IMG/VR virus record: IMGVR_UViG_3300017989_000052
DNA from: a virus
Lineage: Duplodnaviria > Heunggongvirae > Uroviricota > Caudoviricetes
DNA length: 64,000 nt
Direction: 5' to 3' (one strand)
Of the stretch, positions 1,621 through 42,235 are shown in pieces. The notes under the pieces were generated by a model, which saw only the letters and a list, made by a program, of their open reading frames with translations, was not told where the DNA came from and made no database searches. The position numbers and the translations under genes are program-made. How positions within the stretch are numbered: position 1 is the stretch's first letter; every line of letters starts with the position of its first letter.

Positions 1621-2874
1621 ATGTCCGAGTTTCGAAAGGTATCCCTACCCAAAGGAAGAACTGAGATGAAGTCAACACACAAAGCATTTGTCGAGCCAAT
1701 TATTCTAAAGGAGCATCCCAATGCGGATTCCCTTTCGCTTGTAACAATTAAGGAAGTCTGGAATGTAGTTGTTCGGACTGAAGATTGGCAAGGGGTTGAC
1801 CGGGGGGTTTTCATCCAGCCGGATACCCTAGTTCCTGACACAGACCATTTTTCATTCCTCTTCAAAAAAACTTACCGTCTAAAGTCTGATAAAAATACGA
1901 GGGTTGCCGCAAGAACAATAGAAGAAGCTTTAGAGCTCCTAACAGAACAAGGGATTACTGTAACGGAGAAAGACCTTGAGACAGTTCTCTCAAATTCTCG
2001 TTATACAATGATGCCTGACGGGACCTCTATAAAAAGGGAAGATGGCGCATACGCGCGTGTCACTGTTAAAAAATTCAGAGGAATTAAATCTTTTGGGCTC
2101 CTGGTTCCAGCCCCAGAAGGAGCCGAGATCGGGGATAATTTAGCAGAGGAGCTCGGGCTCCAACATTACGAAGCCGCAATTAGCGCAGTAGGGGGAGAAA
2201 GCGAACGGGGACCCTCAGGTGTAACAGCTCCAAAATATGACGTTGACGCACTAAAGAATAACATCAAAGCTTTTGAAGAAGGGGAATTAGTTTCGATTTC
2301 TGAAAAAATTCACGGAACTAACGCTCGGTTCTTTTATGGGAAAGACTCTGATGAAGTGGAGAGGATGTTTTGCTCTTCTCATTATCATTGGAAAAAGGAT
2401 TCTCCCGCTTCTGTTTGGTGGCGAGCCCTCCGAGCACACCCCGAAGTTGAGCAATTTTGTAAAGAGAATCCTGACGTCGTAGTCTATGGGGAAGTCTACG
2501 GCAACCCGGTTCAAGGTTCTTACGATTATGGTCTTGACGACGCAGCCGTTGGTATCTTTGTCTTTGATCTTTTCCGGCTTCCAAAAGAAGGGGAGCCTCA
2601 AGGGCATTGGATCGATGTAAAGGAAGCCAGGGCAATTGGAAAAGATCTTCCTTGGGTTCCTTTGATCGCCCATGACGTCCCGTTTGACATGGAAAAAATC
2701 CTAGAGATGGCAGAAGGAAAGTCTACCGTTTCAGGAGTTCGGAAGGGGCATATCCGGGAAGGCGTTGTTGTTCGGCCAATGAAAGAGAGATCGATTACAG
2801 AATTAGGGCGGGTTTGTCTCAAAGTTGTTGGCTTCGGCTACTATGAGAAAAAACATAAAAAGAGAAACAAATGA
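1621..2874 (+). CDS. RNA ligase, Rnl2-type nucleotidyltransferase with N-terminal tRNA-binding-like OB domain
   Basis: Motif I EKIHGTN (as in T4 Rnl2), downstream VYGEVYG and GVVVRP ligase motifs; N-terminus carries KEHPNADSLSLVTI, which resembles the HPNADKL signature of Myf/CsaA/EMAP tRNA-binding domains. Confidence 0.65.
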   Translation: MSEFRKVSLPKGRTEMKSTHKAFVEPIILKEHPNADSLSLVTIKEVWNVVVRTEDWQGVDRGVFIQPDTLVPDTDHFSFLFKKTYRLKSDKNTRVAARTIEEALELLTEQGITVTEKDLETVLSNSRYTMMPDGTSIKREDGAYARVTVKKFRGIKSFGLLVPAPEGAEIGDNLAEELGLQHYEAAISAVGGESERGPSGVTAPKYDVDALKNNIKAFEEGELVSISEKIHGTNARFFYGKDSDEVERMFCSSHYHWKKDSPASVWWRALRAHPEVEQFCKENPDVVVYGEVYGNPVQGSYDYGLDDAAVGIFVFDLFRLPKEGEPQGHWIDVKEARAIGKDLPWVPLIAHDVPFDMEKILEMAEGKSTVSGVRKGHIREGVVVRPMKERSITELGRVCLKVVGFGYYEKKHKKRNK

Positions 2875-3188
2875 ATCTAGAATACCTCCTGGGTTTTGAT
2901 GACCTTGAGGAGAATCGTTTCTATTACATCGTCGTAAACAAGGATTCTCTTAAGAATGGTATTCCAAATTTGTTAACCCATAAGAATGAGAAAATCCGGT
3001 GGTGGGTGAAAGTAGAACATAACAAAGTTAACTTCTCGGGGGAGTGGCAACGTCTCTATAAAGAAAAACAGCTTCGGGTTATTTTTGTCGGACACACCCC
3101 TGAGAACGAGAAATCTTTTCAACAGAAGATTACCGATTGTCTCCTTTTGCGGGTACTAAAAGATATGACCGATCGTCTTGAGGCTTAG
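2871..3188 (+). CDS. hypothetical protein, LLTH-x-VR motif family
   Basis: NLLTHKNEKIRWW motif; ORF track. Confidence 0.4.
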   Translation: MNLEYLLGFDDLEENRFYYIVVNKDSLKNGIPNLLTHKNEKIRWWVKVEHNKVNFSGEWQRLYKEKQLRVIFVGHTPENEKSFQQKITDCLLLRVLKDMTDRLEA

Positions 3189-3289
3189 AAATGTAATAGA
3201 TAATCGCGATTAATTCTCATACCCTGGCCTTTCTTCCCCGACGCAAAAGGGTATAAAAAGAAAGGTTTTTTGGTATGAAGGATTAAAAG

Positions 3290-4306
3290 ATGGAAATTAA
3301 ATTCAAGGTAACAGAAAAAGATATTGGGGGTCTGTTACAGAAAGTTTTTGCGAGTAGGAAACCCAAAATACTTCGTTACTGGCGGCTTGAGAGCGAATCG
3401 CAATTTTTGATCCGGAACAATAAAATAATCGCTTCCTTCCCTTTAGCTTGTCAAGTGAATGAAAACTATTACATCTTTAAGCCTTTCCGGGTCATTTTAA
3501 GCGAGCCAGATTACCTTCCCCAAGATGCTACCTACGACAAATCGAAAAGGTCTATAAACCTGGCCCAGTTTTTAACGACAAAGGATGAGGTCGTTCGCAA
3601 AACTGCCCGATACGCTTTAAATAACCCTCCGATAACAGTTGATTGTAAATATGAAAGCCAGTATTTCCATAACGCCGCAGAGATTAAAAAGGCGATTTCG
3701 GGCTTTAGCGGGATTACAGTTAGGAAGAAACAAAAGCGGCGAGCGTTGTCCGACTTTAGAACAATTACTCTGAATTTTAGAAACAGGGTCTTTCTAAAGA
3801 TTAATGTTGATATTAAGAGCACAACAAAGCAAGAACTTTTACAAAGGGTAAAGGAAACAAAAGAAAAAGCAGAGAAAATCTATCCGGTACTTTTGAACAA
3901 AGATGTTCTATTTGAAGAATCCCAGGTAAATGAGGGCCATTATTGGTATGACCTGGCTCCAACTTATTTTTCAAAAGAAGCTGAGATTAAAGGGGTTACA
4001 CGAACAATAAGAACTTCTGTTTTCTTTGATTGTTATGAAATTGTTTTAGATGATATAGCGGGTATCGAATTTCTTTTACACCTACATGATTTAGTTCTAC
4101 CAACACTTCAAGCTTTCTTTAAAAACCAGAAGCAAGAATTTACTCTTCTTCTTGGGAAGGAAGATCTTAGGGTCTCAGCAGTTGACCTTAAAACGCGTAT
4201 TGTCCTGGGAACCTCTATTATAGATATATCCCAACCCGCAGACCTTGTTATCCAGGAATTGGAAGATCGCCTAAACGATTTAGAAACCGCATCTCTCCCG
4301 GTTTAA
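3290..4306 (+). CDS. hypothetical protein
   Basis: 338-aa ORF, coding-like composition, no motif recognised. Confidence 0.35.
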   Translation: MEIKFKVTEKDIGGLLQKVFASRKPKILRYWRLESESQFLIRNNKIIASFPLACQVNENYYIFKPFRVILSEPDYLPQDATYDKSKRSINLAQFLTTKDEVVRKTARYALNNPPITVDCKYESQYFHNAAEIKKAISGFSGITVRKKQKRRALSDFRTITLNFRNRVFLKINVDIKSTTKQELLQRVKETKEKAEKIYPVLLNKDVLFEESQVNEGHYWYDLAPTYFSKEAEIKGVTRTIRTSVFFDCYEIVLDDIAGIEFLLHLHDLVLPTLQAFFKNQKQEFTLLLGKEDLRVSAVDLKTRIVLGTSIIDISQPADLVIQELEDRLNDLETASLPV

Positions 4307-5419
4307 TTCAGGAACGTGTGCTTCCTTGTTATTCAGAATTGCATAGAGGCGAGAGAGTGGAACTTCATCCTCTATTTCAATTTCTTTATTATACCCGCGT
4401 TTCTTTAGCCATGCCTCTGCTTCTTCTGGGGAAAACTTTTCGAATTTTAATCTCTGTAGAGCACGTCCATCCCGAAGAAACGCAGAATCAATATCATCGA
4501 TATCATCATTTGTGGTAATAAGAAACATACACGAAAGCCCTTGGCCCAAGATCCCGTCTGTAAAGTTTAAGAGGCGGGCCATTCCATAAGTTTCATGGGA
4601 TCCACGAGCTTCCTGTAAAACTGTTCTTGGGCTATCCTCAAGAATAATTAGATTTCCCTTCTTCTCCTCTGGGGGGCCTTTTTCCGAAGGCATGGGCATT
4701 AAGCCCCCCGTTTCATTTTCTAGCAAAACCTCTTGGAGATACATTGGGTCCTTAAAAAATGCTTCTGGATCTATAATAACGTGGGGAGTTACTTTCTTTC
4801 GCCATTCCTGAAGTAGTGCCCGCAAACAATAAGTCTTGCCTGTTCCTGGGGCTCCCATCCAGAAAATCATTTTTCCAACATCCCATGGAGTTTTTAAACC
4901 AAGGAGATGTTTTATCTCAGGCTCGACTGCTGGATAATTTGCACTAATCTCATCGAAAATGGGGCATTGGATCTTCCGGGTGTAGTATGTCGCACCATTT
5001 CTTCCACGGAACCAAAACTTAACATTAATAGTATCCGCGTCATTATTAACTTCATACTTTTCAAGTAGCTTTTTAACCTCAGTGGAAACCTTAAAAAGTA
5101 ATTGCTTGTCTTCGCTGCTTATCTGGATACCAAAACCCATTTTACCACAGTCTAAGAAAAAACAAAACTTTTTATTTTCAATTTTTGTTTCCGCCATTTC
5201 ATAAAAGGGGAGATCATCTTCAAAGCATAGAAAATGAATTTTATGATCGTAGTTGTATCTATCTTTTAAGAATTGAAAAATATCATCATAGTCTTTATTC
5301 TTAAATTCGCCCCTAACGTCAATTCTATTATGGAAACAAACTTTTGGGTTATCGATATAGAATTGTTTTCTGAAAACGTCGGTGAAATCTCCGTTTGCCG
5401 GTAACACTCTTGTTCTCAT
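4280..5419 (-). CDS. AAA+ ATPase
   Basis: Walker A GAPGTGKT, Walker B LIILEDS, sensor-1 ITTND and arginine-finger region SAFLRDGRA. Confidence 0.6.
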   Translation of the reverse strand: MRTRVLPANGDFTDVFRKQFYIDNPKVCFHNRIDVRGEFKNKDYDDIFQFLKDRYNYDHKIHFLCFEDDLPFYEMAETKIENKKFCFFLDCGKMGFGIQISSEDKQLLFKVSTEVKKLLEKYEVNNDADTINVKFWFRGRNGATYYTRKIQCPIFDEISANYPAVEPEIKHLLGLKTPWDVGKMIFWMGAPGTGKTYCLRALLQEWRKKVTPHVIIDPEAFFKDPMYLQEVLLENETGGLMPMPSEKGPPEEKKGNLIILEDSPRTVLQEARGSHETYGMARLLNFTDGILGQGLSCMFLITTNDDIDDIDSAFLRDGRALQRLKFEKFSPEEAEAWLKKRGYNKEIEIEDEVPLSRLYAILNNKEAHVPELNRERCGF

Positions 5420-5522
5420 GGTTAAAACTCCTTTTTAATCTATTCTATTTATTATTACTTAGGAGATCCCTCGTAGAACTAAAAAATTCAACCATATATT
5501 AAATTAAGCTCGCCGGGTACCT

Positions 5523-6584: not shown

Positions 6585-6661
6585 CCAACCATGCAGTGGG
6601 TTAAAAACCACTGCATTCTTTATGCAGTTGCATGGTCTGTGCTTAGACGAAGGACAAACGA

Positions 6662-10259: not shown

Positions 10260-10799
10260 ATGAAACCAGAAACGATCTATGGTTTCCCCCGCTCTTTAAT
10301 CACTTACCAAAAGGGGAGGATTAAGAAGAGCGCAGAGGGGGTCAACCTAACTTTTAAAAAAATTCGTCCTTACCTTTCCTTAAAAACCCAAAGTAACCTA
10401 GAGATCTTTACGAAGGTTAAACAAATTACGTGGAAAAAGGTATGGGTCTTTTTCGTAAAACGAAGACGACGAGAATATTCAAAAACAAAGGTTACGTATA
10501 AAGAATATGAAAGAGCCTCTATCCTCATTGAAGGAAAAGACGAAAAAGGAATCGTTTACCAATATTGGAGAAAAGAAACGGCCCACCCAGGAGCGGGACA
10601 GACTCTTTTATATACTGAAGGGCGGAAACCAAAGCAAGCAATGAATATCATTGGAAACTATGCTAACGCCCATATGAAAGTTAAGCGTGCGATTAAAAAG
10701 AACGAGCTAAAGTCTTTATTAACAGACGAAGATAAATTTGTGCGAACATTCGCAAAGGAAGCATTAGGAGAACAAGATGGCGACGAAATACCCGACTGA
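10260..10799 (+). CDS. hypothetical protein, LLTH-x-VR motif family (KSLLTDEDKFVRTFAKEALG)
   Basis: C-terminal HEAT/PBS-like motif. Confidence 0.4.
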   Translation: MKPETIYGFPRSLITYQKGRIKKSAEGVNLTFKKIRPYLSLKTQSNLEIFTKVKQITWKKVWVFFVKRRRREYSKTKVTYKEYERASILIEGKDEKGIVYQYWRKETAHPGAGQTLLYTEGRKPKQAMNIIGNYANAHMKVKRAIKKNELKSLLTDEDKFVRTFAKEALGEQDGDEIPD

Positions 10800-12801
10800 C
10801 CCTACGAAACTGTCTCAGCAGGAAATCGAGGGATTCCTCCAGGAATGGAGCGATTCTTATTATAACACGGAAGACGCTAAATCCATTGCCCCAGATAATG
10901 TCTATGACCTATTCAAGGACTATTTGGAAGCGCAGTACCCAGACTCGACCTTCTTAAAGGTTGTCGGTGCCCCTGTTAAAGTTTCTGAATGGGAAAAGAT
11001 GGAGCATGAAATCCCTATGGGGAGTCTTGATAAAGTCCACAACGTGGATGATATTAAGGCTTGGTCTAGTTCCATCGGCGCTAAAAATTTCTGGATCACT
11101 GAAAAGCTAGATGGCATTAGCATTGAACTTCTTTATGACGATGGAAACCTTACAGCAGCCATTACCCGAGGGAATGGTAAAGTAGGGGAAAATATCTTAG
11201 CTAATGTCCAGCGGATGAAGAACGTTAAGCGAAAATTGGCCATTCCTTTTAATGGGACAATCCGAGGCGAGATCATTCTAAGGAAAAGCGAGTTCGCTAA
11301 ACTTAGCAGCGATGGGTATTCTAACCCACGAAACGCGGCAAGCGGTATCGCTCGGCGGTACGATGGGACCCAAGCAGAGCACCTTGAAATTCTTTACTAT
11401 GATATTATTGCTTATGATACTGAGCATGAAGACCAGATTACCTCCGAAGCAAGCAAAATCAAATTTATAAAAGGGCTTGGGGTCAAAGCGCTCGAAGGGG
11501 AAGTAGTCGACCTTAAGAAAGCCGATAAAGTCTACGAAGACTATAAAGCAGCAAGACGAGCAAAACTTGATTATGAAATTGACGGCCTAGTTCTAAAAGT
11601 TAATGACCTAGACATTGCCAACAAGATTAACGATACCGCAACAAGCGATAACTCAAACCCGAAAGCCCAAAGGGCTTGGAAATTTGACCAACCAATGGGG
11701 ATCTCCAAGCTAAAGAAAATTCTTTGGAGTACGGGAAAAGGTGGAAGTGTAACCCCCGTTGCGTTTTTCGAGCCCATTAGTTTAGCTGGGGCTTCTGTGC
11801 AAATGGCATCAATGCACAATTTAAGCATTGCTGAAGACTTAAACGTGAACACCGGCGATGAAATTATCGTCATTCGCGCGAATGATGTCATTCCACAGGT
11901 GCTTGGAATCCATAAAAAGCATAATAATAAGAAAATTGAAGTTCCTACTGTTTGTGGAGAATGTGGGAAAAACCTACATCTTGAAACTTCCCAGACAAAA
12001 GATCGGGTAATTAAGACGCTTCATTGCATTAACGAGGACTGCCCAAAATTGAAACTTGGGAAAATTATCCGGCTTATCGAGGTCTTTGAAATTAAGGATT
12101 TTAGCGAGTCTCGGATCCAGGCTTTATATGATGCTGGTTTTGTAAAAGATGCGGCCGATTTGTTTACATTTGACCGCGCCAAGGCAGCAAACCTCGAAGG
12201 CTTTGGAAAACGAATCTTTGATAAATTGGATAAACACCTAGAAGAAAAATCAAAGGTTTCGCTATCGCAGTTTCTTGCGGCTCTAGGAATTCGAACCCTT
12301 GGCCGCCGGCAATGGAAGAAAGTAGTTGATGCTGGGCATGACTCGTGGGATAAGATCGAGACCTTGATGCACCTCCCAGAACAAAATTTCGTAACGGAGC
12401 TTAGCAAAATCAAAGGGCTGGGGGAAGAAATTTGTAAAATGATGTACCAAGGCTTAGTAAAAAATAAAAGCTTTGCATCTAAACTTCTCCAACACCTAAC
12501 GATTAAAAAATCTGGGACTGCTGATGGGAAACTCAGAGGGTTAAACCTTTGCTTTACGGGGTTGCGCAAATTCAACGGAGTTGACCTAGCAAAGCTTATT
12601 CAAAGCGAGGGTGGGGCAGTTCGGAACTCGGTTAGTAAAAACTTGGATATGCTAATCGTTGCAGATTTAAACTCCGGCAGCTCGAAGATGAAGAAGGCAA
12701 AGGATCAGGGAGTTAAGTGTATTGAAGTGGAAGACTTCTTTAAGCAGTTCGGATTTGAAGCTGAAAAACCCAAAGCAGACGAGGAAGAAGACATCATCTA
12801 G
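10777..12801 (+). CDS. ligA: NAD+-dependent DNA ligase
   Basis: Adenylation motif EKLDGISIEL, C4 zinc finger CGECGK...CINEDCP, HhH region and C-terminal BRCT-like tail; 674 aa, typical LigA size. Confidence 0.85.
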   Translation: MATKYPTDPTKLSQQEIEGFLQEWSDSYYNTEDAKSIAPDNVYDLFKDYLEAQYPDSTFLKVVGAPVKVSEWEKMEHEIPMGSLDKVHNVDDIKAWSSSIGAKNFWITEKLDGISIELLYDDGNLTAAITRGNGKVGENILANVQRMKNVKRKLAIPFNGTIRGEIILRKSEFAKLSSDGYSNPRNAASGIARRYDGTQAEHLEILYYDIIAYDTEHEDQITSEASKIKFIKGLGVKALEGEVVDLKKADKVYEDYKAARRAKLDYEIDGLVLKVNDLDIANKINDTATSDNSNPKAQRAWKFDQPMGISKLKKILWSTGKGGSVTPVAFFEPISLAGASVQMASMHNLSIAEDLNVNTGDEIIVIRANDVIPQVLGIHKKHNNKKIEVPTVCGECGKNLHLETSQTKDRVIKTLHCINEDCPKLKLGKIIRLIEVFEIKDFSESRIQALYDAGFVKDAADLFTFDRAKAANLEGFGKRIFDKLDKHLEEKSKVSLSQFLAALGIRTLGRRQWKKVVDAGHDSWDKIETLMHLPEQNFVTELSKIKGLGEEICKMMYQGLVKNKSFASKLLQHLTIKKSGTADGKLRGLNLCFTGLRKFNGVDLAKLIQSEGGAVRNSVSKNLDMLIVADLNSGSSKMKKAKDQGVKCIEVEDFFKQFGFEAEKPKADEEEDII

Positions 12802-16071: not shown

Positions 16072-16154
16072 GCCGGGGTGGCGAAATTGGCAGACGCGAC
16101 AGATTTAAGATCTGTTTCCCTTTGGGAGTGAGGGTTCAAATCCCTCCCCCGGCA
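16072..16154 (+). tRNA. tRNA-Leu (anticodon UAA), type II
   Basis: Hand-folded cloverleaf: acceptor GCCGGGG/CCCCGGC, anticodon arm ACAGA-TTTAAGA-TCTGT, long variable arm, T arm GAGGG-TTCAAAT-CCCTC, discriminator A; CCA not encoded. Confidence 0.8.
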
Positions 16155-16163
16155 TGTGAATAA

Positions 16164-16418
<255 letters not shown>

Positions 16419-16430
<12 letters not shown>

Positions 16431-17285
16431 CTTAAATTTATTTGGATTATGTTCTTCTCTATGGCAATTCCCACAAAGAAGAATACATTTTTCTAATTCT
16501 TTTCCCAACTTTGCTTTATTTTTATAATTACCAAGCAAGATGTTAATTTCTGAATCTTTTTCTCCATTATGGTGAAATTCTAAAATAGTTTTATTTACAG
16601 GCTTTAACCCACATTTGGAACATTTATTCCCAAGCTTGATTAAGGCTTCTTCTCTTATTTGTAACCTTCTAATTTTGCTTTGTAAATGAACTCTCTTATT
16701 ATCTGTTTTTCTTTTACATTCTTTCGAACAAAATTTGCTTCTAGCTTTAGGAAGTTTTACACCACAACAAACACATTTACCTTTTTCTTGGAAATATAGA
16801 GAATTCAGTTCCTCCTTAAGAAGTGCCCCTAGTTTTCCGGAGTGTATATTTCGATGACAATTTACGCAAGCTAAAATACACTTCTCCAACTCCTTTAAGA
16901 GAATTTCTCTTTTTCTATCTAATTTATCTGCGGACAGATTGAATTTTTTGCCTCCCCCTTCTTTATGGTGAAATTCTAACGCAGCGTAATTTTTATCGTA
17001 ACCACAAATAGAACATTTTCCCCCTAAAATGTTAATTAGCTCTATCCTTTTTTCCAAACGCCGCTTATTTTGATGGTCAACTATTTTTCTTAGGTTCCTT
17101 TTATTAGATAATTTCATCCGGCACTTTTCGGAGCAATATTTTCGTTGCTGCCCTTTTAGGGCTTTACCACAAACTAAGCAGTTTGTAGCTTTACAAAAAT
17201 CACAAATTTTTCGATACGAGGTTTTCCACCCCTCGGTAATAAATATTTGATTACAAGAAGTACATTTTCTTTTATATTTTTTCAT
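16419..17285 (-). CDS. HNH homing-type endonuclease (two HNH/zinc-finger modules)
   Basis: Repeated CxxC...EFHH...N...CxNCH motifs (CSICGYD...ALEFHHKEGGGKKFN...CVNCHRNIH and CSKCGLK...ILEFHHNGEKD...CGNCHREEH); start taken at the MKKYKRK ATG; the stop overlaps the tRNA-Arg 3' end on the opposite strand; markedly AT-rich compared with neighbours. Confidence 0.7.
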
Positions 17286-17336
17286 GATTCCCCTTCCTTC
17301 TAAAAAAGATAGAGTCATAAAATATTAACCGGAACA
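16434..17336. mobile_element. HNH endonuclease cassette bounded by a 14-bp direct repeat (TACCGGGTGTGCTT at 16420-16433 and 17337-17350)
   Basis: The left repeat copy is the 3' end of tRNA-Arg; the AT-rich insert is consistent with a mobile insertion that regenerates the tRNA 3' end. Confidence 0.45.
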
Positions 17337-20829: not shown

Positions 20830-20922
20830 GGGGGACTAGCTCAATTGGTAGAGCAGCGGGTTTATGCCCCGTGTTAGTGTCTGATAAACACAAGGTTCTG
20901 GGTTCGAGTCCCAGGTCCCTCA
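20830..20922 (+). tRNA. atypical 93-nt tRNA-like gene with two candidate anticodon hairpins (GCGGG-TTTATGC-CCCGT = UAU, or GTGT-CTGATAA-ACAC = GAU, Ile)
   Basis: Acceptor GGGGGAC/GTCCCTC, D arm GCTC-AATTGGTA-GAGC, T arm CTGGG-TTCGAGT-CCCAG, discriminator A; 42 nt lie between the D and T arms instead of about 22. Confidence 0.5.
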
Positions 20923-23254: not shown

Positions 23255-23791
23255 ATGAAACCTGAAAAAAAGCTAAAGACGATTGCAAAAAGAATTAAAA
23301 GCAGTAAATCGCCATTTCTGCCAAAGGAACGGGTGTTAAGATGCCCTGAAGATAATTTCTATTTAGGCTTGTCCGTCGATACACCGCAAAAGGCATGGGA
23401 AAGAGCAAGAGAAATTGCTCGGGAGAAAGGGGACATTGAAAGCAGTGAGTATCTCAAAGACCGGGGGGAATTTCATATCACAGTTCTTTCCCCAAAGGAA
23501 CTACGCAAAGTTCTAAAGGACCACCCCGAGCTTAAAGAAGAGCCTGTTAAAATAACAACCACAGGTAAAAACGGGGTTAAGTATTTAGGGATTGGGCGGG
23601 CCGAGAAAAATGGTAATGTAGCATATTTCATTGTTGTCGATTGGCCCGCAGCAAGAAAACTCAGAGCAAAATATCTTGGGGAAGAAGAGGCTAACAAGCA
23701 AGAATTCCATATCACGTTAGGATTTAAGGAAAAGGATGTTTTTGGCGACCCACCGTTAAAAGGCCCAGAATCCCTCGTGGAAAAGTGGTAG
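23255..23791 (+). CDS. 2H phosphoesterase (LigT / 2',3'-cyclic phosphodiesterase family)
   Basis: Two H-x-T-x motifs (EFHITVL and EFHITLG) about 80 aa apart. Confidence 0.6.
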   Translation: MKPEKKLKTIAKRIKSSKSPFLPKERVLRCPEDNFYLGLSVDTPQKAWERAREIAREKGDIESSEYLKDRGEFHITVLSPKELRKVLKDHPELKEEPVKITTTGKNGVKYLGIGRAEKNGNVAYFIVVDWPAARKLRAKYLGEEEANKQEFHITLGFKEKDVFGDPPLKGPESLVEKW

Positions 23792-25621: not shown

Positions 25622-26062
25622 ATGCCAGACAAAGAGATTAAATTCTACGGCCCTACTGACGAATACGGGTTCTTCTCAAACTTCTCCGCCCATCCGATTA
25701 GCCTAAAAGGAAAGGTCTGGCCTACCTCCGAGCATTACTACCAAGCACAGAAATTTGCGGGCACGGAAATCGAAGAAAAGATTCGATGGCTACCCGCTCC
25801 TGGAAAAGCCTTTCGGGAAGCTCGAAAACATAAATTGAGGGAGGACTGGGAAGAAGTAAAAGTTGATGTAATGCGCGATGCATTGCTTGCGAAATTCACC
25901 CAACACGGGGACCTTAGACGAATTCTTTTAGGGACTAAGGATGCCCTTTTAATCGAGCACACTCCCCGCGATTCTTTTTGGGGGGATGGCGGGGATGGTA
26001 GTGGAAAAAATATGCTCGGAACTCTTCTTATGGAACTGAGAGAAAAGCTAAGGGGACAATAA
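25622..26062 (+). CDS. NADAR-family protein (YbiA-like N-glycosidase / ADP-ribose processing)
   Basis: YGFFSNFS...VWPTSEHYYQAQKF...FWGDGGDGSGKNMLGTLLMELREKL is close to E. coli YbiA throughout. Confidence 0.8.
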   Translation: MPDKEIKFYGPTDEYGFFSNFSAHPISLKGKVWPTSEHYYQAQKFAGTEIEEKIRWLPAPGKAFREARKHKLREDWEEVKVDVMRDALLAKFTQHGDLRRILLGTKDALLIEHTPRDSFWGDGGDGSGKNMLGTLLMELREKLRGQ

Positions 26063-27245: not shown

Positions 27246-27779
27246 ATGCTTTCTAAAAATATTCAAAAAATAGCTTTCGATTTAATCGCGAAATCCCAAA
27301 AAAGATGCGAATCGGCAGGGCTTTTCTTGCCCCTCCCGAAACATATTGCAAAGCATTTTCCCCATAAACCAGAAGATACATCTCCTCCCCATGTGACGCT
27401 ACTTTATATTGGGGATGTCCCCGAAGTAGATGCCATTCTTTATAAAAAGATAGCAGAAGTTGCTGCAGCAAAAAATCCCGTTGGGAAGATGAAACTAAAG
27501 GACCCTTCCTTCTTCAAAAATCAGCATGATCAATGGATAGCGCACAACCCAATCGAATGCCCAGGGCTAGAGGACCTACGCAAAGCAATCTGGGATGCTT
27601 GTGATAAAATTGGATTAGAAGTCCAAGATAGTTTCAAAAAGTTTAAGCCTCATGCCACATTAGCTTACCTTGATAAAAAGAAGTATGACGGAGATTTCTT
27701 TATTGGGGACTTCCAACCCACATCTGTCGAACTATGGGGCTTTGGAAAGAAACATAAAATCCCCTTAATCCCTAACTAA
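27246..27779 (+). CDS. 2H phosphoesterase, second copy
   Basis: PHVTLLY and PHATLAY HxTx motifs. Confidence 0.55.
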   Translation: MLSKNIQKIAFDLIAKSQKRCESAGLFLPLPKHIAKHFPHKPEDTSPPHVTLLYIGDVPEVDAILYKKIAEVAAAKNPVGKMKLKDPSFFKNQHDQWIAHNPIECPGLEDLRKAIWDACDKIGLEVQDSFKKFKPHATLAYLDKKKYDGDFFIGDFQPTSVELWGFGKKHKIPLIPN

Positions 27780-27866: not shown

Positions 27867-28430
27867 ATGGATTATCAAAATCTCTATACAGAGCTGAGAA
27901 ATGGGACCCTAACCGAGGAAACACTCGAGGAGTTCCAAGGCTTGCTGGAGCTTCGGCTTCGCCAGAAGTACAAAAATGTTGCTCTCCTCGCATCTATTTT
28001 TGGTATGAGCCCACCTGATCTTATTCAGGAACTTTTAATTAAGGCGCTGCTCGCTGCTCGAACTTTCGATGAAGAAAAAACAGTTTTCACTACTTATCTC
28101 TACCGCTGTATAGATAACGAAATTTATAGTCGGCATCAAAGTTTTAGGCGAAACCTTAACAAAGGGGCTTTAGTCCAAAGGGAAGACGAAGACGTTCCTA
28201 TTACCGAACAAGGGTTTAATGAAATCGACAGTAAAGAGGAGTTAACTTTTCTTTTACAAAATCTCCCCAGACTTCCTGAGCGGGAGGAAATAATTCTCAG
28301 TTTAAGGTTGGTGGGCTTTACGTTTGAAAAGATTGGGAAAACGTTCGGCATATCTCGGGAAGCCGTGCATCAACGCTTCCATAAAAGCATCCTCCCGAAA
28401 TTGAGAGGCATCTTAAATGGGCGAATATAA
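27867..28430 (+). CDS. sigma-70 family (ECF-like) sigma factor
   Basis: Region 2-like FTTYLYRCIDNEIYS and region 4 HTH EREEIILSLRLVGFTFEKIGKTFGISREAVHQRF. Confidence 0.65.
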   Translation: MDYQNLYTELRNGTLTEETLEEFQGLLELRLRQKYKNVALLASIFGMSPPDLIQELLIKALLAARTFDEEKTVFTTYLYRCIDNEIYSRHQSFRRNLNKGALVQREDEDVPITEQGFNEIDSKEELTFLLQNLPRLPEREEIILSLRLVGFTFEKIGKTFGISREAVHQRFHKSILPKLRGILNGRI

Positions 28431-34444: not shown

Positions 34445-34463
34445 AAAGACCTTAAAAAGAAAA

Positions 34464-34492: not shown

Positions 34493-34505
34493 TTCGTTTT
34501 TATTT

Positions 34506-34979: not shown

Positions 34980-34980
34980 T

Positions 34981-35538: not shown

Positions 35539-35585
35539 AGCATACCTCTTTTTAAAAGAAGGATTAACACAATATTAAGGAAAAA

Positions 35586-36389: not shown

Positions 36390-36500
36390 TTCATTTTCTC
36401 CTAATAATTATACAAAAGCCTACGAAGGTTCAAACGTAGTTCTAAAAAAATTCAAAATATAAATAATAACAGGGTGAATTGCCTAACGTAGGAGTATATA

Positions 36501-36806: not shown

Positions 36807-37051
36807 TGCAAGTAACAGCAAAGACACTAGAAAAGTTAGGGTTTCGTAAAATCCCCTGGAAGGAACAGGGTAAACGAGAAATAGCGTACCAGTACAAAAC
36901 CGTAACCTTAACCCAATACACTTTTCGAGAAGGCTTCTTTTATTCCTCTTGTGGCGAAGATACGCCGATCAGCTCCGAAGAACACTTACTAGCCGTTGTA
37001 GAAACCCTTCACGGAGAATCGTTAAATGCCTCTGGCGACTTACCTAAATGA
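36806..37051 (+). CDS. hypothetical protein
   Basis: ORF track. Confidence 0.3.
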   Translation: MQVTAKTLEKLGFRKIPWKEQGKREIAYQYKTVTLTQYTFREGFFYSSCGEDTPISSEEHLLAVVETLHGESLNASGDLPK

Positions 37052-38255
37052 GAACTTCCCTTCTAGCGATGGAATTGAAGAACATTTCATGGAAAAGTTT
37101 GGCGTAAAGGTCAAACAAGAAAATGATTTGTTTCTCTTTCAATATGATATGTTAGCCGCGAAGTGGTTAGAACCAATTACCCATGTATGCCGAGGCACGA
37201 TCCTTCGGCTTAGTGGTGGGTCTTGGGAAGTCCTTTCTCGCCCCTTTGATAAGTTCTTCAATCAAGGCGAAGGGCATTGCAAGCTTTTTGAGACTTCTGC
37301 GTTTGAAGCAGCAATAGGCTCTCTTGCTTTTATCGAAAAAGCAGATGGAACTTGCATCCAAGTCTGGTTCGACGATATTAAGGAAGAGTGGAGAATCTCT
37401 ACGCTGGGGACGATAACAACCTGGTATGCTGGGGATTCCAATTTGACCTTCGATCAGCTCTTCTTCCATGTTCTCGGGAAGGGCGAGCTTGAAATACCAA
37501 ACGAGCTCCGGGGGCATACTTTGCTATTCGAGCTTTGCAGCATTGAGAACCGCATAGTCACCCAGTACGAAAAAGATACGATCTTCCTGCTAGCAATTCG
37601 AAACATTAAAACTGGGGATTATGTAGACCGGGAACAGCTGAAGGGTGTTGCAGATACCCTAGGAGTTCGTGTACCCGCACAAGAAAAACTAACTTCCTTA
37701 GGCATTCAAACTCTCAAGGAAGCTGTCGCCTACGTCGAAAAAGAGAGCGAAAAGCATGAAAAATACGGGAATTACCCCGAGGGAATGGTAATTTATAAAG
37801 AAGGCGTGCCGGTCTGTAAAATGAAGAATGAGCGGTATGTCCAACTTCACCACGCAGTTGGTGCGGGGGATTTGCTTTGCACCCGGAATAAAATTATCGA
37901 AGCATACTTTTCCGGAAACATCGACGATCTTATGCCCGTGTTAATACCAACGATGGTGAAGTTTGCCGAGACAGTAAGAAGTTGGTGGGCATCCCAACTT
38001 GCCAAACTGTTACCCATTGTAGCGGAGTTGGCAGCGGATGAATACGAAACACAGAAAGACTACGCACTTAAGGTACAAGCGATAGTCCCTAAACAGTATA
38101 TGGGATTTTTCTTCGTCAATAAGGAAAAAATACTAGCACATGAAATAGATTCCGATTCCTTTGCTGCCTGGATGAAGCAAAACTCTCGGAAATTTGAGAA
38201 AGAGATAAAGGAGCTCTATCGCCCGGCAAATTCGGAAACTCCCAACAACAAGTAA
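37026..38255 (+). CDS. RNA ligase 1 (T4 RnlA-like tRNA repair ligase)
   Basis: VCRGTILRL...SRPFDKFFNQGE...IEKADGTCIQVWFDD lines up with T4 RnlA ECRGIMFEM...SRPMEKFFNLNE...LTKEDGSLVSTYLDGD (motif I KxDG). Confidence 0.7.
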   Translation: MPLATYLNENFPSSDGIEEHFMEKFGVKVKQENDLFLFQYDMLAAKWLEPITHVCRGTILRLSGGSWEVLSRPFDKFFNQGEGHCKLFETSAFEAAIGSLAFIEKADGTCIQVWFDDIKEEWRISTLGTITTWYAGDSNLTFDQLFFHVLGKGELEIPNELRGHTLLFELCSIENRIVTQYEKDTIFLLAIRNIKTGDYVDREQLKGVADTLGVRVPAQEKLTSLGIQTLKEAVAYVEKESEKHEKYGNYPEGMVIYKEGVPVCKMKNERYVQLHHAVGAGDLLCTRNKIIEAYFSGNIDDLMPVLIPTMVKFAETVRSWWASQLAKLLPIVAELAADEYETQKDYALKVQAIVPKQYMGFFFVNKEKILAHEIDSDSFAAWMKQNSRKFEKEIKELYRPANSETPNNK

Positions 38256-38256
38256 A

Positions 38257-38811
38257 ATGAAAACCACGGTATTTTTCAAACAAGTAAAGAATCCTGGAGT
38301 TTTAGGAACTCTTTTCAACTATATCCGAAAGTCTCTAACCCGGAATAAGGAAACAGCCGAAGATCTTATTCAAGAGGCGTTTTTTAGTGCTTGGAAAAAC
38401 CGGGAGAAATTAGAAGAGAAGAAACTTCTCTCATGGTTAAGGGTTGTAATAAAGAATCGGTTTATTGACCTTACTCGAAGAAAATGTGAAAAGGTTCCTA
38501 GAGATACTAGTTTCGATCTTTCGGATGACCCAAGAAGACACCCCGCCACAAAGGACCCCGCTTATGTAATAACCACAACGATGGCAGTGCTTTACGATCA
38601 AGATAAAATATTCGAAACGCTTGATGATGCTTTAGTTACCGCTATCAAGAGGCTAAATTCTCGCCGACGAGAAATTTTCTTATTGAGAACATTAGTAGAG
38701 CTTGATTACGAAATGCTTGCTAGCCGATATAAGCTCTCGGTGGGAGCAGTTAAAAAAGAAGTGTTTTATGCGAAAAAAGAAATTAAAGAAACGCTTGGGG
38801 AGCCTAGTTAA
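38257..38811 (+). CDS. sigma-70 family (ECF-like) sigma factor, second copy
   Basis: DLIQEAFFSAW region 2 and C-terminal region 4 HTH EIFLLRTLVELDYEMLASRYKLSVGAVKKEV. Confidence 0.6.
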   Translation: MKTTVFFKQVKNPGVLGTLFNYIRKSLTRNKETAEDLIQEAFFSAWKNREKLEEKKLLSWLRVVIKNRFIDLTRRKCEKVPRDTSFDLSDDPRRHPATKDPAYVITTTMAVLYDQDKIFETLDDALVTAIKRLNSRRREIFLLRTLVELDYEMLASRYKLSVGAVKKEVFYAKKEIKETLGEPS

Positions 38812-39121
38812 AGATAGGCAAGTATTTCTTTGCCCAGAAACGAACGGCCCCATGTTTATGTGTTAGCAAGGTATAGGGGTCAATAACATTTATATTATGA
38901 TGCAGAGTTAGCATTGTAAAGGTTGAGCCATATATAACATCTTTTTGATTTCCTCTAAGAAACCCAACTTTTTCAGGAATATCAAAGAGGTAACCAACCT
39001 GGACAAAATATTTTTTTGTTAGATAGATGAAATCTTCGCCCTTGACAAAGGGGGCCGATAGCAAACGATATATTTTGCCAAACTCTATTATAATATTACA
39101 GTTCTCATTTAAGCTCTTCAT
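38804..39121 (-). CDS. hypothetical protein, LLTH-x-VR motif family (YTLLTHKHGAVRFWAKKYL)
   Basis: C-terminal motif. Confidence 0.4.
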   Translation of the reverse strand: MKSLNENCNIIIEFGKIYRLLSAPFVKGEDFIYLTKKYFVQVGYLFDIPEKVGFLRGNQKDVIYGSTFTMLTLHHNINVIDPYTLLTHKHGAVRFWAKKYLPIFN

Positions 39122-39192
39122 TTTTCTTGAGGGGCTGAGTTTTACTCTTACAGAATAAGTTACACTTTATTCAATCAAAAGGAAACGGAAAA

Positions 39193-39483
39193 ATGAAACT
39201 CGGAACGCTAGTTGCAGTGAATCTCAACCACCTGGAAAAGGTACTCGGCAAAGTTGTTGAAAGAGGGATTTCTGAGGAAGAGCTTATTATAGCAACCCCA
39301 AGTGGGGTAAAGACAAAAGCTCTAAGGAGCCAACTTGAAGCTTTAGATAAAGATAAAAACCAGGAAGAGTTGAATCAATTAAGAATGCACGAACAGGATA
39401 TTATACTAAAAGGTATTTTCCCTCTTTATGGGCGGAATCTAGTTTTGGATGAAGGTTTCTACCCAGACAACTACATGGAGTAA
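39193..39483 (+). CDS. hypothetical protein
   Basis: ORF track. Confidence 0.3.
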   Translation: MKLGTLVAVNLNHLEKVLGKVVERGISEEELIIATPSGVKTKALRSQLEALDKDKNQEELNQLRMHEQDIILKGIFPLYGRNLVLDEGFYPDNYME

Positions 39484-39487
39484 CCCA

Positions 39488-39901
39488 ATGAAGCTTGCTA
39501 TTATCATGCGTGGTTTGCCCGGTTCGGGAAAAAGCACTTTGGCCCAGGAACTGGCGACCAAAGCCGAAACTTCAGCAATTTGTTCGGCAGACGACTTCTT
39601 TGTTGTTGCGGGGGAATACAAATTCAACCCCAATTGGCTACCGAGAGCACACCAGACCTGTAAAGATAAGTTTAAGTCCCACCTTCGAAAAGGGACTGAA
39701 ATAGTTATCGTTGATAACACCAATACCCGAAAGTGGGAATTTGCCGAGTACGTGAAGATGGCTAAGGCCCACAACTATAAGGTGGAAATCAAAACACCTC
39801 AAACCGACTGGGCTTTTGACCCGGAAGAATGTGCAAAGAAAAATTCCCACGGGGTTCCCGCAGAAGCGATCCAGCGGATGAAAGATCGCTGGGAAGACTA
39901 A
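39488..39901 (+). CDS. P-loop kinase (polynucleotide kinase / AAA_33-like kinase domain, tentative)
   Basis: GLPGSGKSTLA Walker A, IVDNTN Walker B-like; size and layout match stand-alone Pnk kinase domains. Confidence 0.5.
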   Translation: MKLAIIMRGLPGSGKSTLAQELATKAETSAICSADDFFVVAGEYKFNPNWLPRAHQTCKDKFKSHLRKGTEIVIVDNTNTRKWEFAEYVKMAKAHNYKVEIKTPQTDWAFDPEECAKKNSHGVPAEAIQRMKDRWED

Positions 39902-39946
39902 GTACAAAAGCCTGTGTCTCTCTTAACCCAACCTGGAGATGAAATA

Positions 39947-40249
39947 ATGTCAGACCAATACGATCCTCTTGGAATTGAATTGCTTCATGCTAACGCTTTG
40001 GAAAAGTTTAAGGAACACCAACAAAAAGAATCCGGGATTGAGGCTTTGCAATCGCTAAGAGACTCTTATCTCTGGCTCGTAGAGCAACTTTTTTCTCTTC
40101 AAACCGCTTTAGCAAAGAGAGTTGATAAAACAGCGATAATGAAAGAAATCCTGGAGAGGTTTAGTAACGGTTTAGACGCCGAGCAGTTTGACGCAGACGA
40201 ATGGGGCCCAACGCTTGAAGCGATTGAGAATATTTTTAAGAGCTATTAA
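39947..40249 (+). CDS. hypothetical protein
   Basis: Start at the MSDQYD ATG with a GGAG ribosome-binding site. Confidence 0.3.
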   Translation: MSDQYDPLGIELLHANALEKFKEHQQKESGIEALQSLRDSYLWLVEQLFSLQTALAKRVDKTAIMKEILERFSNGLDAEQFDADEWGPTLEAIENIFKSY

Positions 40250-40746
40250 TCCTTAACCTTAATATCCCGCATACAACGGAATTTTTCATCTAGGTCCATT
40301 CCATAACCCAAAACAAAACGATCCGGGATTTCAAACCCGACAAAATCAGGGGTAAATGGAATAACTCGTCTAGATGGTTTACTCAGTAAAACCGCTGTTA
40401 AAATTTCTTTAGCTCCCGCTTCCCTCAACTTTCGGGCTAGAGTTGAAAGGGTTAGACCCGTATCGATAATATCATCGAGCAACAAAATGGTCTTTTGAGA
40501 AACATCTGGGAATTCCCCAATTTGGATATCGCCCGTAGATTCTTCTCCTTCATAAGACCTAGCTTTGATAAACTCTAACTCGTAGTCTTCCATGTTAAGT
40601 TCTTGCATTAAGTCAGAGCAAAAGAACGCAGCTCCTTTTAGAAGGGCTAAAACCAACACGTCCTTATCTTGCAACTTAGGTAATATTCGCCTAGCAAGGC
40701 TTCTGATTCGAGCTTTTATATCATCATTACTAATAAATGTTCTCAT
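40246..40746 (-). CDS. hpt: hypoxanthine/xanthine-guanine phosphoribosyltransferase
   Basis: PRPP-binding motif ILLLDDIIDTGLT and type I PRTase layout. Confidence 0.75.
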   Translation of the reverse strand: MRTFISNDDIKARIRSLARRILPKLQDKDVLVLALLKGAAFFCSDLMQELNMEDYELEFIKARSYEGEESTGDIQIGEFPDVSQKTILLLDDIIDTGLTLSTLARKLREAGAKEILTAVLLSKPSRRVIPFTPDFVGFEIPDRFVLGYGMDLDEKFRCMRDIKVKD

Positions 40747-40804
40747 AAGTAAATCCCCACAGTAAATTTAAGTATATAACTATTACTACCGAAGAGGAGA
40801 AAGC

Positions 40805-42235
40805 ATGAATAAGAACCGAGAAAAAAGTAAGAAAGTGGCTTGTGACTTCTCTTCGAGAAGTTCCCCCCTTTTTCTTAAAACCAAGATGTTTAAAGCAGCA
40901 AACTATATCTTTGAAAAGTTAAATGCTGCTGGGCACTCCACTTATTTCGCGGGTGGTTGTGTGCGGGATTCAATCCTAAAACTATCTATTAATGATATCG
41001 ATATTGCCACTTCAGCAACCCCAGACGAAGTCCAAAAGCTTTTCAGGAAGTCTAAGGCGGTAGGGGCATCCTTCGGGGTTGTGCTTATTGATATTGATTC
41101 CATTCCGTTTGAAGTTGCTACTTTTAGGACTGATAGCTCTTATTCTGACGGGAGGCACCCCGATAAAGTAGAATACAGCAATGATCCCAAGATAGATATC
41201 CAACGTAGGGACTTCACAATCAACGGTCTTTTCTATGATGCTAAAACCGACGAAGTCCTTGATGTTGTGGGGGGTGTTAAAGACCTGGAAGCCGGAAAGG
41301 TGCGAGCAATTGGTAACCCGGAAGAAAGGTTTGCAGAAGATTACCTCCGGATGTTACGTGCTGTTCGGTTTGCTGCACGGTTTGGATTTGATATTGAGGA
41401 CGAAACTCTGTTAGCAATTCGAGGGAATGCCCATAAAATAAATGACTTAGCCGCCGAAAGGGTTAAAGCGGAGCTTACTAAAATTTGGGCCGGACCCAAC
41501 CCTCACTATGCTCTAGATCTACTTCGGACAACTGGGCTTCTCCAAGAAATATTACCGGAAGTCGCAGCTCTAGAGGGGGTGGAGCAGCCAAAGAAATTCC
41601 ACCCCGAGGGTGATGTTTATAATCATACATACTTTGCATTGAAAGCCATGTGGGAGGATTTGGGAGCTGATGTTTCTCCCACCCTTGCCTGGGGAGTTTT
41701 ACTCCACGACATTGGCAAACCACGGACTGCTAAGATAAATAGGAGTGGCCGGGTCAGTTTTAATGGGCATGACCACGTTGGTGCGAAAATGGCAGAAAGG
41801 GTTTGTGAGCGTTTGAAATTTTCAAATGAAGAACGAGATTTAATTATTACCTTAGTCCGCAACCATATGAAATTCTTGGTTGCCCGTAATATGAAAACCG
41901 TAACTCTTAAGAAGTTTTTACGAACTGAGGGTTTTGATCAACTCTTACAATTACATAAATATGATTCACTGTCGGGAATCGGGGACCTTTCAAACTATGA
42001 ATATACTCAACAAAAACTCGATGCTTTTGAAGCAGGCACCCTCCAAGACGGCCTCAGGCCGAAAATTCTCTTAAATGGCGAAAATTTGAAGGAATTGGGG
42101 TACGAACCGGGGCCCATGTTTGGCAAGTTCATTCGTGCTTTAGAGGACAAACAACTAAACGAAGAGATTAAGACTAAAGAAGAAGCAATTGGTTTTGCGC
42201 GAGTATACCTTGGGAAGGGTAAGAAGAATGTATAA
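40805..42235 (+). CDS. cca: tRNA nucleotidyltransferase (CCA-adding enzyme) with HD domain
   Basis: Pol-beta head GGCVRDSIL...DIDIAT, RxxRFAARF body, HD motif LLHDIGKP. Confidence 0.8.
   Translation: MNKNREKSKKVACDFSSRSSPLFLKTKMFKAANYIFEKLNAAGHSTYFAGGCVRDSILKLSINDIDIATSATPDEVQKLFRKSKAVGASFGVVLIDIDSIPFEVATFRTDSSYSDGRHPDKVEYSNDPKIDIQRRDFTINGLFYDAKTDEVLDVVGGVKDLEAGKVRAIGNPEERFAEDYLRMLRAVRFAARFGFDIEDETLLAIRGNAHKINDLAAERVKAELTKIWAGPNPHYALDLLRTTGLLQEILPEVAALEGVEQPKKFHPEGDVYNHTYFALKAMWEDLGADVSPTLAWGVLLHDIGKPRTAKINRSGRVSFNGHDHVGAKMAERVCERLKFSNEERDLIITLVRNHMKFLVARNMKTVTLKKFLRTEGFDQLLQLHKYDSLSGIGDLSNYEYTQQKLDAFEAGTLQDGLRPKILLNGENLKELGYEPGPMFGKFIRALEDKQLNEEIKTKEEAIGFARVYLGKGKKNV

Follow-up and report, generated by a model that had tools for sequence, protein, structure and literature searches.

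RNA end-processing genes dispersed over 40 kb of an uncultured jumbo phage, with a ligase and kinase that are credible partners in RNA repair

Introduction

What do six RNA end-processing genes do in one phage genome, and do they act together? The question is raised by a stretch of Caudoviricetes DNA of 64,000 nucleotides (nt) from the IMG/VR record IMGVR_UViG_3300017989_000052, analysed here at its full length and called the window, which encodes two RNA ligases, two 2H phosphoesterases, a small P-loop kinase and a CCA-adding enzyme, along with several tRNA genes. A preliminary description read these genes as an expanded, redundant tRNA repair kit directed against host anticodon nucleases, accompanied by tRNAs of the kinds that such nucleases cleave, in which the 2H enzymes and the kinase replace the bifunctional Pnk of phage T4. 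The pairing of ligase and kinase in homologues supports repair; the exchange of Pnk for 2H enzymes, the redundancy and the specificity of the tRNAs as targets were found unsupported or overstated.

The idea of such a kit is in itself not new. In 224 jumbo phages, Iyer et al. (2021) found Rnl1, Rnl2-superfamily and RtcB ligases in any combination, 'probably not redundant' (PMC7824862, section 3.4.9). Their inventory further includes polynucleotide kinases, 2H phosphoesterases that clear cyclic ends, CCA-adding enzymes and tRNAs, as well as HAD, calcineurin and HD phosphatases, KptA and RlaP, and the authors interpret the whole repertoire as an answer to attacks by the host on tRNA (PMC7824862). 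With the concept already published for jumbo phages, the window stands as a further example of it.

The six genes

Each of the six genes is an intact open reading frame (ORF) with a Pfam family match far above chance and catalytic motifs in place:

1621..2874, plus strand: ATP-dependent RNA ligase of the Rnl5 (DraRnl/NgrRnl) clade, by Pfam, NCBIfam, PDB matches and motifs
23255..23791, plus strand: stand-alone 2H phosphoesterase of the 2H-SAK family (Pfam PF22547, E 9.8e-24)
27246..27779, plus strand: LigT/ThpR-like 2H phosphoesterase (Pfam PF13563/PF02834, 2_5_RNA_ligase2/LigT, E 4.5e-12)
37026..38255, plus strand: RNA ligase of the Rnl1 clade (T4 RnlA family), by Pfam, PHROG, PDB and motifs
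39488..39901, plus strand: stand-alone P-loop kinase of 137 amino acids (aa), related to the Pnk kinase, by Pfam, PHROG, PDB and synteny
40805..42235, plus strand: class II CCA-adding-type tRNA nucleotidyltransferase with a C-terminal HD domain, by Pfam, PHROG, NCBIfam and motifs

The gene identities, the motifs and the synteny of homologues are direct observations, and so is the arrangement. The RNA end-processing set is dispersed and non-operonic: its members are spread over 40 kb and several transcription units, and do not form the single gene set in one place that had been described. Just three of them, the Rnl1-clade ligase, the kinase and the CCA enzyme, are encoded close together (within 5.2 kb), and two minus-strand ORFs interrupt this stretch.

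The Rnl1-clade ligase and the kinase

The ligase at 37026-38255 matches RNA_lig_T4_1 (PF09511, E 7.8e-17) and PHROG 562 (E 4e-47), and structures of T4 Rnl1 are its sole PDB relatives (2c5u, E 5.5e-10). The Rnl1 catalytic motifs are present as K105 in KADG (motif I), E252-G (motif IV) and K265-M-K267 (motif V). Residues R56, K76 and F77 of the N-subdomain align with CRG and EKFFN of the T4 enzyme (T4 Arg54, Lys75, Phe76), in which the roles of these residues have been described (PMC6379707). The similarity extends into the C-terminal part, with TIGR02308 aligning aa 36-392 to model positions 32-366 of 373, at a weak 74 bits against a cut-off of 242. A scan of IMG/VR yielded no relatives of this ligase.

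The kinase ORF could begin at 39449 or 39488, and a GGAG ribosome-binding site precedes the ATG at 39488. The protein matches AAA_33 in Pfam (E 4.4e-20) and PHROG 505, 'polynucleotide kinase' (2e-17), and its best PDB relative is the kinase domain of T4 Pnk (1ly1, E 1e-4), with an end-to-end alignment. A GLPGSGKST P-loop and an SADD motif holding the candidate base Asp are found, and the 137 residues are kinase only, without a fused DxDxT (HAD) 3′-phosphatase domain. Stand-alone kinases of this type are common, with a homologue in 911 phage records, and the neighbourhoods of several of them are informative. In the jumbo-phage contig L008 the kinase half of an AAA_33+HAD (HAD_PNKP) Pnkp is 33% identical to the window kinase (E 1e-19), and the gene lies immediately upstream of an Rnl1 homologue and a second RNA ligase. 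Pseudomonas phage PAK_P1 and Aeromonas phage phiA047 encode stand-alone kinases (34-35% identity) immediately downstream of Rnl1-family ligases, with a calcineurin-like phosphoesterase gene preceding the ligase gene in both. In contig L009, an AAA_33 kinase is encoded 3.6 kb downstream of an Rnl1 relative that is 48% identical to the window ligase.

Because kinase homologues recur beside Rnl1-family ligases in other phages, the Rnl1-clade ligase and the kinase, whose genes are 1.2 kb apart in the window, are judged from their sequences to be credible heal-and-seal partners, and this is the strongest functional link among the six genes. The physiological role of T4 Rnl1 is tRNA repair (PMC6379707). 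The most likely function of the window pair is the repair of broken RNA, probably tRNA, to which we assign a probability of about 0.55. We infer a core module consisting of these two enzymes, around which the remaining four could be placed.

The Rnl5-type ligase

The ligase at 1621-2874 had been described as Rnl2-type. It matches RNA_ligase (PF09414, E 2.6e-21) and the PHA02142 OB domain in Pfam, and carries motif I as K229-IHG, followed by GEVYG, EGVVVRP and LK401VV. What distinguishes the clades of RNA ligases is the set of domains joined to the nucleotidyltransferase core (PMC6379707). In this protein an N-terminal OB fold (aa 30-97) precedes a C-terminal nucleotidyltransferase (aa 224-403), and the NCBIfam model for DRB0094/DraRnl scores far above that for Rnl2 (TIGR02306, 6e-35, versus TIGR02307, 7e-4), which assigns the enzyme to the Rnl5 type. 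The only PDB matches are to Naegleria NgrRnl, the Rnl5 exemplar (5cot/6vt4, E ~1e-12). With 120.7 bits against an NCBIfam equivalog cut-off of 151.15, the ligase appears at best to be a divergent member of Rnl5.

The DraRnl/NgrRnl clade seals nicks in duplex substrates. The window enzyme would most likely seal nicks in duplex RNA or RNA-DNA and would not be a backup for Rnl1; the proposed redundancy is unlikely because the two ligases fall in different clades (Rnl1 and Rnl5). Homologues of the Rnl5-type ligase occur in seven deposited phage records. In phage Tunturi_3 the gene sits between helicase and primase/helicase genes, and in the window its distance to the gene for a DNA ligase dependent on nicotinamide adenine dinucleotide (NAD) is 8 kb.

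2H phosphoesterases and 3′-end healing

Both proteins that had been described as 2H/LigT-like indeed carry paired HxT motifs, and they belong to different families. The 2H-SAK protein has H74-I-T and H152-I-T, with His and Thr of both motifs invariant among the aligned homologues. Its family comprises 1823 cluster representatives, mostly of 145-250 aa and mostly stand-alone, and is found in only three deposited phage genomes, each larger than 630 kb. In two contigs a 2H-SAK homologue directly follows a PolyA_pol-type nucleotidyltransferase gene. The AlphaFold (AF2) model of the 2H-SAK protein was poor (predicted local distance difference test, pLDDT, 47) and was not used for a fold search. The LigT-like protein, which also matches TIGR02258 (9.6e-11), has H49-V-T-L-L-Y and H136-A-T-L-A-Y, of which the HxT residues are invariant among aligned homologues. 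Its AF2 model (pLDDT 86) gave the Deinococcus radiodurans cyclic phosphodiesterase (5h7e) and Escherichia coli LigT (5ldm/4qak) as top PDB structures in Foldseek, with the viral 2′-5′ phosphodiesterases rotavirus VP3 and mouse hepatitis virus (MHV) ns2 as significant matches at ranks 12-37. The predicted structure is most like RNA 2′,3′-cyclic phosphodiesterases, ahead of the viral 2′-5′ phosphodiesterases. An Acb1-like identity of the 2H proteins was also considered; there was no PHROG match, and T4 Acb1 was outside the top 50 PDB fold matches of the LigT-like model, no direct comparison with an Acb1 sequence being made.

The same comparison bears on a different reading, in which the 2H pair would not act on RNA ends but would destroy nucleotide-based immune signals or ADP-ribose-derived products as part of an NAD-centred gene set. 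Such roles have been proposed for jumbo-phage 2H enzymes by Iyer et al. (PMC7824862), a NADAR gene (25622-26062) precedes the LigT-like gene with one ORF between them, and NadD-like, CinA/PncC-like and NAD-dependent ligase genes are present in the window. The significant structural matches to VP3 and ns2 would fit as well, as would the absence of the ThpR arginine from the LigT-like protein, which is taken up below. However, bacterial RNA 2′,3′-cyclic phosphodiesterases rank at the top with template-modelling scores (TM-scores) above those of the viral enzymes, PHROG gave only a weak 'RNA ligase' match, and the 2H-SAK homologues adjoin a tRNA nucleotidyltransferase. We consider signal degradation rather doubtful.

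If the 2H proteins act on RNA ends, their product is of importance. E. coli ThpR, the LigT prototype, converts an RNA 2′,3′-cyclic phosphate to a 2′-phosphate end and forms no 2′,3′-diol (PMC4201822). A phosphomonoester is likewise what the 2H enzymes characterised to date leave behind. Because a ThpR-type product keeps its 2′-phosphate, a 2H enzyme plus a kinase would not be a full substitute for Pnk: the step performed by the Pnk phosphatase is unfilled, contrary to the replacement suggested in the preliminary description. Pfam searches of the called genes in the window and in the 10 kb to its right gave no Tpt1/KptA or HAD phosphatase. About 4 kb past the right edge, at L033:16060-16737 (~67998-68675), a calcineurin-like metallophosphoesterase of 225 aa is encoded, which belongs to the same superfamily as the PAK_P1/phiA047 enzyme and resembles the PAK_P1 enzyme at the motif level only.

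The HD domain of the E. coli CCA enzyme has phosphatase and cyclic phosphodiesterase activities. Healing of the 3′ end, the uncertain step of the mechanism, could then proceed by opening of the cyclic phosphate by one or both 2H phosphoesterases, after which the leftover monoester may be removed by the HD domain of the CCA enzyme, by the metallophosphoesterase just outside the window, or by a host enzyme, all three being candidates.

A different possibility would be the route of fungal and plant Trl1, carried out by separate proteins. In that case the 2H enzyme generates 3′-OH/2′-PO4 ends, the kinase generates 5′-PO4 ends, the ligase seals them to a junction carrying a 2′-phosphate, and a host or phage Tpt1/KptA removes the 2′-phosphate using NAD+. 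An Rnl1-superfamily ligase, a P-loop kinase and a 2H phosphoesterase constitute the domain set of Trl1 (PMC6379707), separate enzymes also occur in Mucorales (PMC10680797), ThpR-type 2H enzymes produce the required 2′-PO4 ends (PMC4201822), and the window holds NAD-salvage genes. Against this route, Tpt1/KptA was not found on the called genes of the window or of the 10 kb to its right, and the ligase resembles T4 Rnl1, with an alignment that runs weakly into the C-terminal part, and had no Trl1 ligase structure among its PDB matches at E <0.01. Moreover, no RxxR, which would bind the 2′-PO4, follows the motif V sequence K265-M-K267. We regard the Trl1 route as very unlikely.

The CCA-adding enzyme

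The protein encoded at 40805-42235 combines a PolyA_pol head with PolyA_pol_RNAbd, HD and tRNA_NucTran2_2 domains (Pfam, E 2.4e-36), and matches PHROG 2244 (5.6e-84). It contains the motifs GGCVRD, DIDIAT, RRDFTING and EDYLR, and the HD pair at 301-302. Among the NCBIfam models, those for CCA-adding enzymes score best (261 and 257 bits, under their cut-offs), compared to 207 bits for PcnB. None of the eight tRNA genes of the window encodes CCA, the bases after the discriminators being TGT, CTT, TAA, TTT, TGA, GTC, CTT and TCG. Because no phage tRNA gene encodes CCA, there is a housekeeping explanation for the enzyme: in the first place it would mature the phage's own tRNAs, and restoration of tRNA 3′ tails that the host has trimmed could be a second task.

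tRNA genes and a group I intron

Calling with ARAGORN and Rfam gave anticodons UAA (three times), UAU, UUU and CAU, and one tRNA with an anticodon loop of 6 nt. With a split gene recovered by joining its parts, the tRNA genes are:

16072..16154, plus strand: class II tRNA-Leu(UAA) (ARAGORN; Rfam, 60.2 bits)
16164..16430, plus strand: tRNA-Arg(UCU), split gene (intron by Rfam RF00028, 87.6 bits; in-silico splicing and ARAGORN)
20830..20922, plus strand: 93-nt tRNA with anticodon UAU (Ile/AUA) (Rfam, 56.6 bits; fold)
45642..45713, plus strand: tRNA with the 6-nt anticodon loop CUUCCG, possibly UCC (ARAGORN; Rfam, 50.7 bits)
57932..58016, plus strand: tRNA with anticodon UUU, Lys by anticodon (Rfam, 61.7 bits; fold z -3.3)
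58038..58105, plus strand: atypical tRNA-like molecule of 68 nt; anticodon UAA, U37, D loop reduced (Rfam, 45.2 bits; fold)
58173..58255, plus strand: class II tRNA-Leu(UAA) (Rfam, 55.8 bits)
58633..58705, plus strand: tRNA with anticodon CAU, Met, or Ile if lysidine-modified (Rfam, 73.7 bits)

The tRNA genes are the less expected part of the window, on account of a group I intron in a tRNA gene and a recurrent two-hairpin tRNA-Ile(UAU). The intron, 193 nt long at 16201-16393, follows U36 and ends in G, and joining 16164-16200 to 16394-16430 in silico gives a canonical tRNA-Arg of 75 nt. In intron mode ARAGORN reported 'Gln(UUG)' for this split tRNA, which was rejected since its splice register ends the intron in C and a group I intron needs G. 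A review of 2014 places every phage group I intron known at that time in a protein-coding gene, and none in a phage tRNA gene (PMC3984707); the later literature was not exhaustively checked. The last 12 bases of the tRNA-Arg gene are overlapped by a minus-strand ORF of 299 aa (16419-17318) with a DUF2116-like treble-clef zinc motif, which could be homing-endonuclease-like, an identity that no family match supports.

The tRNA with anticodon UAU has a long variable-arm hairpin whose 7-nt loop, CUGAUAA, has the form of the anticodon loop of tRNA-Ile(GAU). Three divergent homologues come from other metagenomes (L030:177-271, L031:397-492 and L032:958-1053). They differ in their acceptor stems, and the stems of both hairpins show compensatory changes; because the loop sequences were specified in the search pattern, loop conservation is not independent evidence. 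All three lie within dense tRNA arrays, in L032 with 14 tRNAs in 7.7 kb. Pattern scans of IMG/VR for the unusual Ile and Lys tRNAs gave nothing. The UUU tRNA has a class II-like variable arm of 14 nt (3-bp stem, GUAA loop) and A73. The loop of the tRNA at 45642-45713 would be 8 nt if its U-G closing pair opens; the 3′ part of this gene overlaps the start of an ORF (45689-46192), and the GC content around it is raised (0.51 over 44-46 kb).

The molecule at 58038-58105 is nested in a larger structure at 58017-58166 (fold z -4.2), which has a 7-bp acceptor-like stem UGAGCGA/UCGCUCA, a T-arm GCAGG-UUCAAAU-CCUGC and a 6-bp hairpin. In intron mode ARAGORN called 58017-58166 as 'Trp(CCA)' with a 79-nt intron and 58708-58856 as 'Asn', and both calls were treated as unverified. 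The ORF-free interval 58260-58630 between the tRNAs may contain other RNAs.

Lys-UUU, Arg, Leu and Met had been listed earlier as tRNAs of the kinds that nucleases cut. The UUU, UAA and CAU anticodons of that list were called; Arg exists only as the intron-split gene, and the UUU tRNA and one of the UAA tRNAs are atypical. The set resembles the tRNA set of T4. With the exception of CAU, the regular tRNAs with 7-nt loops have U34 anticodons for A-ending codons, and these codons are in regular use in the window genes, where UUA accounts for 22% of the Leu codons, AGA for 20% of the Arg codons, AAA for 61% of the Lys codons and AUA for 19% of the Ile codons; GGA, possibly read by the tRNA with the 6-nt loop, accounts for 28% of Gly. 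This is the classic pattern of codon supply, and it fits codon compensation no less well than a collection of specific nuclease targets, two hypotheses for phage tRNAs that have been contrasted (PMC10264068). The phage tRNAs would supply decoding of A-ending codons and may in addition replace cleaved host tRNAs.

Joint repair or independent functions

In view of the above, the 2H proteins, the Rnl5-type ligase and the CCA enzyme may be placed around the ligase-kinase pair in a repair pathway; the substrates, the sequence of reactions and any connection with host defence we infer from the genes and their homologues. Several findings weigh against this arrangement. The minus-strand ORFs cut the stretch with the Rnl1-clade ligase, kinase and CCA enzyme into at least three transcription units, within a set that spans 40 kb, and the gene contexts of Rnl1 homologues differ widely. 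The second motif of the LigT-like protein (HATLAY) is without the arginine of ThpR, and the extended HxTxxF/HxTxxR pattern is absent; the arginine of HxTxxR is essential in E. coli ThpR (PMC4201822). Neither a HAD or other 3′-phosphatase nor Tpt1/KptA, RtcB or RlaP was found within the window. The host could not be read from the closest bacterial CCA enzymes, which have 31-33% identity to the phage protein, come from metagenome-assembled genomes of Bdellovibrionales, Moraniibacteriota and Bacteroidales, and give no clear signal.

It is possible, though less probable than repair by the ligase-kinase pair, that the six genes serve independent housekeeping or accessory functions and co-occur as jumbo phages accumulate such genes. 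The CCA enzyme would then mature tRNAs that lack CCA, the tRNAs would compensate codon usage, the Rnl5-type ligase would serve DNA replication or repair at RNA-DNA junctions, and the Rnl1-clade ligase and kinase may be the sole true repair pair. This would agree with the lack of CCA in all eight tRNA genes, with U34 tRNAs that read UUA, AGA, AAA and AUA (19-61% of their codon families in window genes), with the replication genes around the Rnl5-type homologue of Tunturi_3 and the nearby NAD-dependent DNA ligase gene of the window, and with the 40-kb dispersal. On the other hand, the linkage of kinase and Rnl1 recurs across unrelated phages, 2H-SAK is linked to a CCA-type enzyme elsewhere, and comparative surveys describe these families as co-distributed in jumbo phages (PMC7824862).

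A more elaborate scheme, which we consider improbable, divides the genes over two specialised repair lines. Cas12a3 is a recently described immune nuclease that targets tRNA tails. In this scheme the kinase and Rnl1-clade ligase would mend anticodon-loop breaks and the 2H-SAK protein would work with the HD-containing CCA enzyme on tails: 2H-SAK may open the terminal cyclic phosphate and the CCA enzyme may rebuild 3′ tails cut by tail-targeting immune nucleases. Remodelled tRNAs might escape host tRNases, with as candidates the UUU tRNA with its long variable arm, the UAU tRNA with a second Ile-anticodon-like hairpin and the intron-split Arg-UCU. Such a division is compatible with the data because 2H-SAK adjoins a CCA-type gene in unrelated contigs and the unusual Ile tRNA recurs in phage-like arrays.

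Genome context

The window covers a region of accessory genes in the genome of an uncultured jumbo phage. Its proteins are encoded identically on the metagenome contig ena:ERZ27256770:k141_416325 (335,479 bp), in which base 1 of the window corresponds to approximately position 210,818, and further copies reach up to 384 kb. With two 7-kb pieces of the window as queries, no near-identical DNA was found among 50,697 deposited phage genomes. Tunturiibacter phage Tunturi_5 encodes the closest CCA enzyme (44%) and has no gene order in common with the window. As is typical of a jumbo phage, the window has genes for an NAD-dependent DNA ligase, a flap endonuclease, an SPFH protein and ClpS, two sigma-70-like genes, two radical-SAM genes and many ORFs without known relatives. 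The ORFs flanking the repair genes had no significant Pfam or PHROG match, and PDB sequence searches with two of them, the 383-aa ORF between the NADAR and LigT-like genes and the 362-aa ORF that follows the CCA gene, were empty as well.

The sigma-70-like genes are at 27867-28430 and 38257-38811, with a third just past the window at L033:13457-13993. The gene at 38257 begins 1 nt past the stop of the Rnl1-clade ligase and the one at 27867 begins 87 nt past the LigT-like gene. Because of these positions, phage sigma factors and RNA-repair genes may be co-transcribed.

A theme of NAD and nucleotide salvage runs across the window in five genes:

490-1110: NadD-like adenylyltransferase for nicotinic acid mononucleotide (NaMN) or nicotinamide mononucleotide (NMN)
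10777-12801: NAD-dependent DNA ligase
25622-26062: NADAR protein, one ORF upstream of the LigT-like gene
40246-40746, minus strand: HGPRT-like phosphoribosyltransferase
59222-59818: CinA/PncC-like NMN deamidase

Significance

If the proposed repair function is correct, the phage adds a divergent version of the classic T4 heal-and-seal system, one without a phosphatase. The Rnl1-clade and Rnl5-clade ligases, the RNA kinase of 137 aa and the two small 2H proteins would then be possible reagents, and the genes would provide test cases for phage answers to tRNA-targeting immunity. Repair of this kind is a settled concept in T4, and jumbo-phage examples have been catalogued; the finding thus lengthens a list and opens no new question. 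Particular to the set in the window are the stand-alone kinase, the stand-alone 2H-SAK protein and the Rnl5-type ligase.

Comparison with known systems

The repertoire that Iyer et al. compiled for jumbo phages is encountered again in the window, which likewise has an Rnl1 and a second ATP-dependent ligase, a kinase, 2H proteins, a CCA enzyme, tRNAs and NAD-related genes. The window genome is outside that survey, it has no HAD phosphatase, RlaP, RtcB, Thg1 or KptA in the window, and its second ligase is Rnl5-type. This ligase has the N-terminal OB and C-terminal nucleotidyltransferase architecture of Deinococcus DraRnl and Naegleria NgrRnl, and differs from these enzymes by an insertion of ~50 aa between the two domains and by its score under the family cut-off.

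With fungal and plant Trl1 the phage set has the three chemistries in common, and their distribution over separate proteins is as in the split version of Mucorales. The window ligase belongs to the Rnl1 clade and not to Rnl6, and the RxxR 2′-phosphate site and a Tpt1 partner were not found. Phage T4 uses Pnkp and Rnl1 to reverse the cleavage of tRNA-Lys by PrrC. The correspondence with this system includes an Rnl1-clade ligase that has the full set of nucleotidyltransferase motifs and the N-subdomain residues specific to Rnl1, and whose C-terminal region aligns weakly with that of the T4 family, the T4 Pnk kinase domain as best solved relative of the kinase, and phage-borne tRNAs. In contrast to T4, the window kinase is without a fused DxDxT phosphatase, and the ligase and kinase genes are not adjacent; identities of the ligase and the kinase to phage relatives reach 26-28% in this comparison.

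The cassette of the Pakpunavirus PAK_P1 and of phiA047 also combines a homologous stand-alone kinase of ~135 aa with an Rnl1-family ligase. There the three genes are contiguous, the ligase is ~300 aa long and without a C-terminal domain, and the candidate for 3′ healing is calcineurin-like, whereas the window has separated genes and a full-length ligase, and the only candidates for action on 3′ ends inside it are the 2H proteins.

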